From IMG/VR virus record IMGVR_UViG_3300017908_000183, positions 1-39,461 of that record: a DNA stretch of 39,461 bases; one strand, 5' to 3'. This document shows, piece after piece, positions 9,184-12,905 of the stretch. Within the stretch, counting starts at the first letter, position 1. Each line of letters starts with the position of its first letter. The position numbers and the translations under genes are program-made. The notes beneath the pieces are model-generated. The model was not told the origin of the DNA. It worked only from the letters and a program-made list of their open reading frames with translations, and ran no database searches. The DNA comes from a virus (Duplodnaviria > Caudoviricetes).

Positions 9184-9735
9184 TTAGTTTACGTTTGTAT
9201 CTGCTTTAGGTGGTATTTGTGGAGTATCATCTGCGCGAGCTTCACCAACTCCTTTTGGATCTTGCATCCAAGCAATATACTGGTCTATCATTCTTGACAG
9301 AGCTTCTGGTTTATCATCTTTCTTAAACTTCACTTTAATTGAAGCCATTCCATTTGAACCAGGAGGATTATGTTTACATGGAGCGCCATGGTCTACTTTA
9401 ATCTCTGCTATATTATGCTGATAGTTTTTCTTTCTGAATAAACCTAACAGATCTTTCTTTAGATCTGAAGTTTTGTGTGGGTCATCGCCAAACTGTAATC
9501 TTGCTGCAAATTCAATCTCTAATTCTGATAGACCTACTGAACCATGGTCAGCAAGAATAAAGAGAGGTACAACCATCTCTTTTTCACCAACTTTAAATGT
9601 CTTTGTGATTGGACTACCATCCTCGTTGAAGTAGTTACGAATTGCATTGATGTGTTGTCTCTCAGAAATACCTTGAGAAACCATTGCTGCTTCTAGCAAT
9701 CCACCAATTAATTCTTCGACGTTTAGTCTTGCCAT
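9184..9735 (-). CDS. DUF2589 family protein (copy B)
   Basis: LIGGLLEAA...VPLFILADHGSVGLSELEIEF...KVKFKKDDKPEALSRMID; paralogous pattern to the upstream gene. Confidence 0.7.
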   Translation of the reverse strand: MARLNVEELIGGLLEAAMVSQGISERQHINAIRNYFNEDGSPITKTFKVGEKEMVVPLFILADHGSVGLSELEIEFAARLQFGDDPHKTSDLKKDLLGLFRKKNYQHNIAEIKVDHGAPCKHNPPGSNGMASIKVKFKKDDKPEALSRMIDQYIAWMQDPKGVGEARADDTPQIPPKADTNVN

Positions 9736-9757
9736 GTGTAGTTAACTTAAGTTGATT

Positions 9758-9786
9758 GTTATACTTAAAATGTTGTTATTGTTTCA
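9758..9786 (-). promoter_or_regulatory. AAAC-N17-TATAAY promoter (putative middle/ECF class)
   Basis: TGAAAC-17 nt-TATAAC upstream of ATG 9735. Confidence 0.65.
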
Positions 9787-9791
9787 ATACT

Positions 9792-9819
9792 AAAAAAGCC
9801 CTCAGATGAGAGCTTTTTT
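9792..9819 (-). terminator. Rho-independent terminator between the two DUF2589 genes
   Basis: AAAAAAGC-C-CTC-AGAT-GAG-A-GCTTTTTT inverted repeat with A/T tails. Confidence 0.75.
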
Positions 9820-9840
9820 GAATGCGTTTGTAAACTTAGA

Positions 9841-10455
9841 TTAAGCTGCGCCACCGCCGCCAGCTGCCGGAGGAGCTGTTGGAGATTTCTTAGTTGGAGC
9901 TGTTGGAGTAGGATCCATCATTGATACTAAAGCATCAGATAATTTCAACATACCTTCAGTTGGCTCTAATTGCTGTGCGTGAACTTTCACGTTATACTTT
10001 GCAGAATTGTCAGTCTTTCTAGTATTCTCTTTTGAAGAAGATACTTTACCAGACATTGACGCTTTGAACTTCATACCGAACCAGCCGCCTGATGCAGATG
10101 CAGACATTGATGCTTCAGAAGAAGATTTGTCTGTTGCTACGTCAGAAGTTTGAACTTCCATATTAAATTCAATATCGGCACTTTGTACAGCTAAAGATGG
10201 TAGCGGAACTAGTGGTAACATCGGCACTTTCGCGTAGTGCTCTTGCCAAGATTGTTCACCTGTATTAGGGTCAGTCATGACTTTGTTAATTTGTACATCT
10301 AACGCTCTAGTTTCACCTTTAATGAAAGCTACTTCGTTGATATATCTCCAAGTTACCTCGTTTAATTTTGCTTGACCTTTCGCCATTCCGACTAGAGGTG
10401 AAACAATTAGATCTTCGATTGGAAGACCTCTGAATTGATCTGCTATTCCTGCCAT
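9841..10455 (-). CDS. DUF2589 family protein (copy A)
   Basis: FRGLPIEDLIVSPLVGMAKGQAKL, VPMLPLVPLPSLAVQSADIEFNMEV, NSAKYNVKVHAQQLEPTEGMLKL. Confidence 0.8.
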   Translation of the reverse strand: MAGIADQFRGLPIEDLIVSPLVGMAKGQAKLNEVTWRYINEVAFIKGETRALDVQINKVMTDPNTGEQSWQEHYAKVPMLPLVPLPSLAVQSADIEFNMEVQTSDVATDKSSSEASMSASASGGWFGMKFKASMSGKVSSSKENTRKTDNSAKYNVKVHAQQLEPTEGMLKLSDALVSMMDPTPTAPTKKSPTAPPAAGGGGAA

Positions 10456-11874: not shown

Positions 11875-11948
11875 TAGGAATGAAGGGACTTGAACCCCTG
11901 ACCTTGACTATATAAGAGTCCTGCTCTAACCAACTGAGCTACATTCCC
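11875..11948 (-). tRNA. tRNA-Ile(UAU)
   Basis: GGGAATG/CATTCCT acceptor; GGACT-CT-TAT-AT-AGTCA anticodon arm (G27-A43 mismatch); GTTCAAGTC. Confidence 0.85.
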
Positions 11949-12006
11949 ATGTTGAAAACACCTTTTAATTTGTAGAGGTGCAAGACTCGATGTGTGTTGT
12001 GATTTG

Positions 12007-12088
12007 TGCGGATGAAAGGACTCGAACCTTCACATCAAATGATACTAGTGCCTAAAACTAGCGCGTCTACCAATTCCGCCACATCCGC
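12007..12088 (-). tRNA. tRNA-Leu(UAG)
   Basis: CTAGT-TT-TAG-GC-ACTAG; long variable arm. Confidence 0.93.
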
Positions 12089-12090
12089 AG

Positions 12091-12365
12091 TACCGAGGTG
12101 AGCTGCGCCTGTCCGAAGATCAGTGGCATACACGCTTACTCAACTCTACCCTGATGGTTCTACTCCACAGGGTGTCGGAGTCGACTCCATTTTAATACTT
12201 TAGGAATGATATAGAGTCATCAATCATTCGTGCAACCTCCATCATTATAGTATCGTCAGCGCGTAGGAGATATGGCCTGACAATGTCTTTACTCCACTTA
12301 GACTCCGTCTTTCGACTTGTAGGCGTGAGATTTGACGCCTCGTTGTTCGGTTGTAAACCTATCTA
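12091..12365 (-). ncRNA. Unassigned ~270-nt structured RNA inside the tRNA array
   Basis: No ORF in the track; GC higher than typical intergenic DNA; multiple stems (AGGCGT/ACGCCT, GTC-GAAA-GAC, GGAGTC/GACTCC, TTGTCAG/CTGACGA, GAATGAT/ATCATTC, ACCCTG/CAGGGT, long hairpin capped by C-TTCG-G). Confidence 0.55.
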
Positions 12366-12370
12366 AGAGC

Positions 12371-12512
12371 TGGGGAGTGGGGGACTCGAACCCCCACTTC
12401 TGCCTAACCAGCCTAATTACACCGCATAACTAGTATGATGCTTTCGGCTTTTTTATCCATGATGCCATCACGAATAAGCTGGAGCGTCATAACCACTTTT
12501 GACTAACTCCCC
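12371..12512 (-). ncRNA. 142-nt tRNA-like RNA with ~70-nt expanded anticodon arm
   Basis: Acceptor GGGGAGT/ACTCCCC-A; D stem GTCA/TGAC with GG; T arm GGGGG-TTCGAGT-CCCCC; centre closed by CCAGCTTA/TAGGCTGG enclosing a large insert. Confidence 0.75.
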
Positions 12513-12520
12513 GTATTTAG

Positions 12521-12594
12521 TACACCAGACAGGATTCGAACCTGTGACCGTCTGCTTAGAAGGCAGATGCTCTATCCAGCTGAGCTACTGGTGC
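12521..12594 (-). tRNA. tRNA-Arg(UCU)
   Basis: TCTGC-CT-TCT-AA-GCAGA. Confidence 0.93.
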
Positions 12595-12606
12595 ATTTGT
12601 ATGCTT

Positions 12607-12694
12607 TGGTACCCGGGGACGGGCTCGAACCGTCACGGCCTTTCAGGCCAACAGATTTTAAGTCTGTCGTGTCTACCAATTCCACCACCCGGGC
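12607..12694 (-). tRNA. tRNA-Leu(UAA)
   Basis: ACAGA-CT-TAA-AA-TCTGT; long variable arm; encoded CCA. Confidence 0.94.
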
Positions 12695-12758
12695 ATACAT
12701 TAGCGATATTTCAAAGAGCCTTTTGGGAACAGTTATATATTATTCCCTGAGGTTAGTT

Positions 12759-12905
12759 TCAGAGTGAAGCCTCGATTGCTTCCAGCTCCATTTCAATCTC
12801 CAGTGCGTAACTGCGCTTTTGATTTTGAGTCATGTTGGCGATTTCTTTTTCAGAGTAGCCAGCGGAGAGAAGCAATTCGTTCTCGTAGTTGTTGATGTCA
12901 ATCAT
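12759..12905 (-). CDS. Small acidic hypothetical protein (48 aa)
   Basis: MIDINNYENELLLSAGYSEKEIANMTQNQKRSYALEIEMELEAIEASL*; third of three tightly packed small ORFs after an early-type promoter. Confidence 0.55.
   Translation of the reverse strand: MIDINNYENELLLSAGYSEKEIANMTQNQKRSYALEIEMELEAIEASL

Follow-up and report, generated by a model that had tools for sequence, protein, structure and literature searches.

What occupies the ~430-nt gap in the tRNA array of this virus, how is it made and what might it do? In the window (the whole stretch of viral DNA analysed, 39,461 nt), a scan of 27 of its 78 ORFs found a T4-like terminase, tail sheath and clamp loader and one protein bearing a type IX secretion signal; the sequencing data sets that match the window best are marine. 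Together these suggest a marine myovirus with a Bacteroidota host. ARAGORN places genes for tRNA-Leu(TAA) and tRNA-Arg(TCT) on the minus strand, followed by the gap and by genes for tRNA-Leu(TAG), Ile, Lys, His and Val. Within the gap, an earlier note had placed a single, highly structured RNA of ~270 nt at 12091-12365, possibly of a new phage class.

Two elements in the gap of a tRNA array

As judged by sequence comparison, the flagged stretch is two separate structured RNAs on the minus strand, module A (12370-12291) and module B (12284-12093; Table 1). Among the first 89 homologous loci, nine have a tRNA mimic and the first 80–85 nt of the flagged stretch, the remainder of which is present in L081 only. 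Module A stands without B in L001-L004, L082, L083, L088 and L089, as it does in most relatives, and B stands without A in L360, there behind tRNA-Ile; the two are adjacent in the window and in L081. Because A is found without B in relatives and B without A in L360, they are independent elements, and the proposal of one ~270-nt class does not hold. The proposed 5′ edge is 5 nt short of the start of module A at 12370.

The strings listed in the earlier note can all be read directly on the minus strand, and no ORF of at least 40 aa overlaps the stretch, as had been claimed. The GUC-GAAA-GAC hairpin is P4 of module A, and UUGUCAG/CUGACGA, GAAUGAU/AUCAUUC and ACCCUG/CAGGGU are stems of the three pseudoknots of module B; homologs back all of these. 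A long hairpin capped by UUCG is likewise backed by homologs as the end of module B, although the UUCG loop itself is not conserved. GGCGU/ACGCC is present in every copy, but it served as a search pattern and so gives no covariation evidence. Two helices were lost on comparison: the adjoining copies of GGAGUC/GACUCC leave no loop and GACUCC is AGCUCC in both homologs, and the UCGG of a possible CCGA/UCGG closing helix is missing from L081 and L360. Nor is the stretch highly structured as a single nested fold, since its minimum free energy (−73.1 for 275 nt) is close to that of shuffled sequences (−70.6±5.1; z −0.48), 65 of 200 being as good. Its structure lies mostly in pseudoknots, however, which the folding program used cannot form.

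The view that this is a conserved, uncatalogued non-coding RNA is borne out: homologs are kept, and Rfam 15 gives no match at gathering score or at E≤10. No family falls on A or B, in the region or at the homolog loci, nor is the stretch RNase P, SRP, tmRNA, GOLLD or ROOL. Homologs also supply a covarying fold for 101 copies of A and compensated stems in B, though not for one joint RNA. The suggestion that flanking tRNA shapes could release the RNA agrees with its ends, the 5′ end being position 74 of the mimic and the 3′ end lying 4 nt before tRNA-Leu(TAG). Overall, what the earlier note observed is partly confirmed and how it was interpreted partly supported; new here are the identity of the upstream tRNA shape as a 142-nt anticodon-less mimic, the four pseudoknots and the stand-alone bacterial copies.

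Table 1. Features in and around the gap, from high to low coordinates
Feature	Position	Strand	Basis or remark
Weak sigma-70-like promoter candidate ahead of the tRNA array	12739..12768	-	9/12 matches; number found not above chance
tRNA-Arg(TCT)	12520..12594	-	Adjoins the mimic upstream in the window and in L001-L004, L082, L083, L088, L089
tRNA mimic without anticodon, 142 nt	12371..12512	-	7-bp acceptor stem, D arm, T arm, discriminator A12371, no CCA
Module A, ~80 nt	12291..12370	-	G-C start at tRNA positions 74-75; P1 12367-12362 with 12302-12297
Module A P2 hairpin, loop-E-like cap	12362-12345	-	Homolog alignment
Module A near-invariant core including P3	12344-12317	-	Homolog alignment
Module A P4	12316-12307	-	Homolog alignment
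Module A pseudoknot	P3 loop 12329-12327 with tail 12294-12292	-	Loop/tail pairing across homologs
Module B pseudoknot 1	12235..12284	-	S1 12283-12277 with 12259-12253; S2 12271-12266 with 12240-12235
Module B pseudoknot 2	12183..12229	-	S1 12229-12223 with 12210-12204; S2 12218-12211 with 12190-12183
Module B pseudoknot 3	12148..12181	-	S1 12180-12177 with 12166-12163; S2 12173-12168 with 12153-12148
Module B terminal hairpin with internal loops	12093..12146	-	Next element a tRNA in the window and L081, a U-run in L360
tRNA-Leu(TAG)	12006..12088	-	tRNA search and Rfam; RNase P cleavage before it would fix the 3′ end of A+B

Elsewhere in the window, the minus-strand spacer between tRNA-Leu(TAG) and tRNA-Ile(TAT) (11962-12005) is near-identical in L089 and partly kept before tRNA-Ile(TAT) in L360, and may be a small conserved element. 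Two DUF2589 genes lie in tandem at 9184-10455 (minus strand), close to auxiliary genes for methylglyoxal synthase, SHMT, IMPDH/GMP reductase, guanylate kinase and an ECF-like sigma factor.

Module A behind tRNA-like genes and on its own

Homologs of module A came from two viral pattern scans (at least 120 stretches each, many of them chance matches) and from a GTDB scan (at least 120 stretches, 63 of 64 parts). There are at least 207 distinct core matches, and 132 of those listed also have the P4 hairpin and a closing P1, a few of them chance matches. A covariance model seeded with 53 hand-picked copies was run on 100 chosen sources, and 101 copies were aligned. In this alignment, which is fitted to the model, 94.9% of cells are paired, against 34–43% in slid controls. 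Changes on both sides occur in 13 of 18 pairs (6/6 in P1, 2/3 in P2, 4/4 in P4 and one in P3), such that three of the four helices, P1, P2 and P4, covary; the invariance of P3 is partly by design, since P3 and its flanks were the search pattern. The P2 cap (U-A-G, G-A-A) and a G-A-G linker are conserved at 98–100%, the 53 seed copies having been chosen with these motifs. By the usual motif rules, we take this cap to be loop-E-like.

A pseudoknot joins the 3′ side of the P3 loop to the bases immediately behind P1, with at least 3 bp in 52 of 71 distinct loops; 3000 shuffles gave a mean of 33 and a maximum of 45. Opposite solutions are seen, for example CC with GG and GGG with CCC. As far as sequence comparison can define it, module A folds into a four-way junction that also contains a pseudoknot, its linkers being near-invariant. 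Likeness of the core to 23S rRNA was set aside on a best E of 0.6 against one Patescibacteria 23S. A larger conserved RNA in L553, L512, L226, L267 and L314 includes the core of module A but differs in its loop; several copies have a T-arm-like hairpin behind them, and this RNA may be a further subfamily.

Upstream of module A in the window lies the mimic, in which a branched insert takes the position of the anticodon loop and one hairpin loop holds a palindrome (12434-12429). It folds more stably than shuffled sequences (z −2.96), yet is called neither by ARAGORN at its defaults nor by the Rfam tRNA model. The tRNA-shaped genes ahead of other module A copies span 71–146 nt where well delimited, mostly 110–146 nt; a script delimited 36 of them, with a few wrong starts, and could not delimit 13 more. 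Reading these genes as intron-containing tRNAs fails, as ARAGORN in intron mode returns Ile, Val, Tyr, Trp and Phe for close homologs, with no shared anticodon. Because close relatives are given different anticodons, we consider them mimics. In the inserts of 20 representatives (7 rows dropped beforehand), 6-nt palindromes are modestly enriched, at 32 against 21.8±4.4 with a maximum of 38. Palindromic hairpin loops centred on CUAG, GAUC and GUAC are kept in relatives of the mimic and are possibly kissing loops. Further odd tRNA-like elements lie in related arrays (L001:5375-5455 and L083:1530-1770). One odd element has no normal D arm (28 bits to the Rfam tRNA model in L326), and in the other a long insert comes after a 5′ half that resembles tRNA-Leu.

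The register between tRNA shape and module A is kept. In the window, G12370 is the first base after discriminator A12371, and of 88 distinct core copies 51 have an upstream T arm, 45 of these with G-C at tRNA positions 74-75. The aligned set includes 46 viral copies; P1 starts 2 nt past the discriminator in 32 of the 36 that have a T arm. By eye, the domain directly before A in L184, L192, L302 (two tandem units) and L580 is circularly permuted and YrlA-like (T arm, looped acceptor, D arm), with A at the anticodon-stem end of the tRNA domain; these domains match the YrlA model at E 1e-4 to 2e-3, under the gathering score. There are also minimal forms (L261, L266 and L313), where the core hairpin sits right behind a tRNA-like CCA end and a palindromic loop replaces the pseudoknot tail.

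Blastn of GenBank phages with three module A copies returned short core matches only. Inspected by eye, two Pseudomonas phages (D6 and Psa21) and the Yersinia phage fHe-Yen9-04 combine the core with G-C at 74-75 and a mimic that lacks an anticodon; comparison of D6 with Psa21 shows covariation in P1. The cultured phage IME10 carries a divergent form of module A. The core also occurs in Erwinia phage ChrisDB (within its tRNA array), phage CUS-3 (in the leader that separates Q from holin), Arthrobacter phage Kumotta (ahead of an HNH gene) and Acinetobacter phage SR. The covariance model gives the cultured-phage forms low scores (13–18 bits), and they are therefore either divergent subfamilies or alike in the core only. 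The CUS-3 leader stretch is near-complete in 119 of 5426 E. coli genomes. A match in Arthrobacter phage Waltz lies inside a gene and was taken as chance, and the exact core is absent from a Vibrio locus (L838). The gene-free late leader of CUS-3, which is P22-like, is dense in hairpins without an Rfam match at E≤0.5 (L835:500-1105), and an annotated amber suppressor tRNA lies just before the mimic-module A unit of fHe-Yen9-04 (L839:273-345).

On GTDB contigs, module A belongs, going by record titles, largely to Patescibacteria, with Enterousia and one Nanoarchaeota record besides, and 48 of the 55 model-aligned copies there have no T arm. These stand-alone copies are built as genes: a sigma-70 promoter lies 4–14 nt before P1 (mostly 8–11) in 36 of 48, against none of 36 viral copies with a T arm, and a terminator follows in 44 of 48, against 3 of 36. 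Reckoned from the usual −10 spacing, the stand-alone RNA would start ~2–4 nt before P1, matching the phage copies; its first base is more often A. Because these copies have both promoter and terminator, module A would work without a tRNA domain and keep the same short 5′ leader. Its spread is patchy. Counts, all lower bounds, are 3 of 151 genomes of Patescibacteria (about 2%), 6 of 301 in one order of that group and 4 of 101 in the Enterousia family, each including the centre genome (2/150, 5/300 and 3/100 without it). The two patescibacterial counts speak against a universal housekeeping RNA.

Of the 34 stand-alone copies with enough flank, 17 have a convergent downstream gene and 17 a co-directional one (14 others are too short), and no gene family recurs. 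A riboswitch or other cis leader was discarded, because downstream genes are equally often convergent and co-directional. Judged from sequence, the flanks of 115 loci hold no recurrent partner protein beyond secA, ychF-like and secD-like synteny among relatives. In L543, L526, L514, L542, L572, L585 and L633, stand-alone A and a secA-like gene converge at their 3′ ends; judged from sequence, that gene has a SEC-C motif. Neither Ro60/TROVE nor RtcB was found in the five carrier genomes searched (drafts, maybe incomplete), and Ro60/TROVE is absent from the 27 window proteins scanned.

Module B and RNA contigs across the locus

Only L081 and L360 carry further copies of module B among 830 loci (four viral pattern scans, and a metagenome scan over 2 of 64 parts). 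The three copies are 65–70% identical, and an unguided search found the same three H-type pseudoknots in the same order in each, with compensated stems. The pseudoknot chain scores 36–37, a value reached by none of 150 shuffles per sequence (maximum 33), although most shuffles still give some three-knot chain. The terminal hairpin folds in all three copies, no more stably than shuffled sequences (z +0.36 to −1.02). Module B is three tandem pseudoknots and a hairpin, which with three sequences is thin support for a family. A strain variant of the stretch in RNA and DNA contigs differs at ten listed sites; mapped by hand, most lie in linkers, one mends a mismatch in the hairpin and one breaks a pair also broken in L360.

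tmRNA, too, has a string of pseudoknots (pk2–pk4), and is marked by a G3-U70 alanine acceptor, a CCA end and a tag frame. The mimic has G3-C70, no CCA and no tag frame, ARAGORN finds no tmRNA, and the Rfam model reaches 14 bits on 17 nt of the T arm only; tmRNA was accordingly rejected.

Two contigs from RNA libraries of one study, X15 and X16, span A and B, and X18 spans most of A. All three metatranscriptome contigs run across the 12371/12370 junction between mimic and A; they may represent precursor or DNA, and such contigs give no ends, strand or level, nor can their depth rank expression. Bridging of the junction counts weakly against fast, constitutive cleavage. X15 and X16 also show a joint that skips 12281-12090, that is module B, with 24 letters on its short side, and that is absent from four DNA runs of other samples. 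Because relatives without B exist as DNA, we lean towards strain variation rather than splicing, the evidence being weak either way.

Proposed release from a tRNA-like tag and competing explanations

RNase Z cuts behind the discriminator of CCA-less tRNAs, and in other systems tRNA tags release the RNAs downstream of them. The reading that we favour, tentatively and at somewhat short of an even chance, is that the mimic is such a processing tag, that RNase Z frees module A and that A then binds a protein. The whole array would be one transcript. RNase P would cut it ahead of the mimic and of tRNA-Leu, and a cut by host RNase Z after A12371 would leave a 282-nt piece of A and B, perhaps split or trimmed further. 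Freed module A would act on its own, probably as a protein-binding decoy, its near-invariant A-rich linkers and P3 forming the surface to which a host protein or small ligand would bind. Module B would be a separate passenger RNA whose pseudoknots likely confer nuclease resistance.

We favour a tag because the promoter and tRNA position 74 give the same 5′ end and because A is complete without a tRNA domain. Moreover, the mimic is variable and without a conserved anticodon, in contrast to linkers of A that are 98–100% conserved (partly through the search design). A decoy role is suggested by unpaired conserved bases, strong promoters, the lack of a cis target and confinement to phages and to reduced, host-dependent cells. 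It is nevertheless the weakest step, no partner gene having been found in the flanks examined and no TROVE or RtcB in the carriers. Three observations count against a tag. The kept G74 fits the first G of a ribozyme, and RNase Z does not need a strongly kept G74. The five permuted domains identified by eye (L184, L192, L302 twice and L580) are ones from which RNase Z could not free A. The RNA contigs that bridge the junction weigh weakly in the same direction.

Those same permuted domains and bridging contigs suit an explanation in which mimic and module A stay together as one two-domain RNA of ~220 nt, like a Y RNA: the elbow would bind one factor (a nuclease, the ribosome or a tRNA enzyme), A would tether another, and the bacterial copies would be reduced forms. 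The fixed 3-nt spacer could then be a geometric constraint, standard and permuted tRNA domains are both joined to A, and the palindrome excess in the inserts hints at a role for the mimic itself. In YrlA Y RNAs (Chen et al. 2014, PMC4201824; Rfam RF02553), a tRNA-like domain is joined to a second module; the window mimic also has a tRNA-like domain, and the five permuted copies share the order of T arm, acceptor and D arm. The window mimic, however, has standard topology, no Ro60 gene was found in the genomes searched and the YrlA scores are far under the gathering score. The Ro60-binding motif GNCGAAN0-1G is not in A, where CCGAA is followed mostly by C and then A inside the junction (column frequencies, by eye). 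That 48 of 55 bacterial and archaeal contig copies do without a tRNA domain, that Ro60/TROVE is absent from 5/5 carrier genomes searched and that the mimic is an intact CCA-less substrate among array neighbours needing processing all tell against a lasting two-domain RNA, which we regard as unlikely, if a serious contender.

The preserved G74 and the permuted domains also bear on a third explanation, that module A is a new self-cleaving ribozyme cutting off the mimic at 73/74 like theta ribozymes, or cutting internally. Theta ribozymes, minimal HDV-like RNAs (Kienbeck et al. 2024, PMC10879173), are small pseudoknotted phage RNAs whose first G lies right behind the 3′ end of mostly CCA-less tRNAs, and many of their copies lie away from tRNAs. 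Module A shares this first-G placement in 45 of 51 T-arm copies. G74 is kept across divergent phages, junction bases are invariant while outer helices vary, the pseudoknot lies near the 5′ end, the spread is patchy (2/150 Patescibacteria, 5/300 in one order and 3/100 in the Enterousia family, centres excluded), and self-cleavage would also account for release from permuted domains. The folds differ, in that theta and HDV-like ribozymes are nested double pseudoknots (P1, P1.1, P2, P3) with a catalytic C in J4/2, whereas P1 of module A closes P2, P3 and P4 and there is one pseudoknot. Module A also follows anticodon-less mimics and occurs as a promoter-terminator gene in Patescibacteria, and any catalysis by it is hypothetical.

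Rfam scans of the region and homolog loci gave no HDV-like match, nor any to hammerhead, twister, twister-sister, pistol, hatchet, hairpin or glmS at E≤10 (11900-12800), E≤5 (20 homolog loci) or E≤0.5 (15 more). The stand-alone promoter would leave ~0–3 nt before A, almost nothing to cut, and the first base there is more often A; RtcB is absent from 5/5 carrier genomes searched, and the contigs crossing the junction are a further, weak objection. Self-cleavage by module A is rather unlikely. Quite unlikely, too, is its boldest form, a ribozyme class unrelated to HDV. In phages as different as jumbo myoviruses and lambdoid prophages it would mature the 3′ ends of anticodon-less mimics, which once freed would join through palindromic kissing loops, and in Patescibacteria it would persist as a gene of its own.

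A and B could instead be stability elements, exonuclease blocks or end protectors of the tRNA-array transcript. Both lie directly 3′ of tRNA-shaped RNAs, and B is a pseudoknot string ending in a hairpin, with a U-run in L360. Bacterial module A, however, sits alone between promoter and terminator with nothing to protect, and its near-invariant unpaired bases exceed what a roadblock needs, which makes this improbable. That the 275 nt are one integrated RNA closed by the CCGA/UCGG helix is very improbable: the two modules lie side by side in the window and L081 and could be released jointly by processing, but eight loci have A and no B, L360 has B and no A, homologs do not keep the closing helix and z is −0.48.

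Phage T4 has two non-tRNA RNAs of unknown role in its tRNA cluster, RNAC and RNAD (species 1 and 2; rnaC 139 nt, rnaD 119 nt; PMC3014915). Module A shares their habitat but not homology: the T4 tRNA cluster gives no match to the module A model with filters off, and blastn of the region finds tRNA-Leu only. Compared with the mimic by blastn and by eye only, rnaC ends in a T arm (by eye) and has a length near 142 nt. GOLLD and ROOL are phage RNAs near tRNA islands, with pseudoknots and unknown function, and palindromic kissing loops are known in GOLLD and OLE (Kretsch et al. 2025, PMC12286853). Proximity to tRNAs and pseudoknots recur in our locus, and the palindromic loops of the mimic recall those kissing loops; by contrast, A and B are far shorter (80 and 190 nt), have no Rfam match and assort independently. 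We found no description of A or B in the literature, although supplements outside that search (PMC10690425, PMC11109978 and the database of a 2026 bioRxiv record, 10.64898/2026.10.21.760802) may list unnamed candidates; core strings of module A are absent from those supplementary files of PMC10690425 that were examined.

Module A, compact, widespread and with a core that hardly varies, is an RNA class in no catalogue searched (Rfam 15), and it links phage tRNA arrays with stand-alone genes of ultra-small, host-dependent bacteria. Either a promoter or position 74 of a tRNA mimic apparently sets its 5′ end. These two routes offer a testable explanation for the upkeep of anticodon-less tRNA look-alikes by phages, a question that goes back to T4 RNAC and RNAD.
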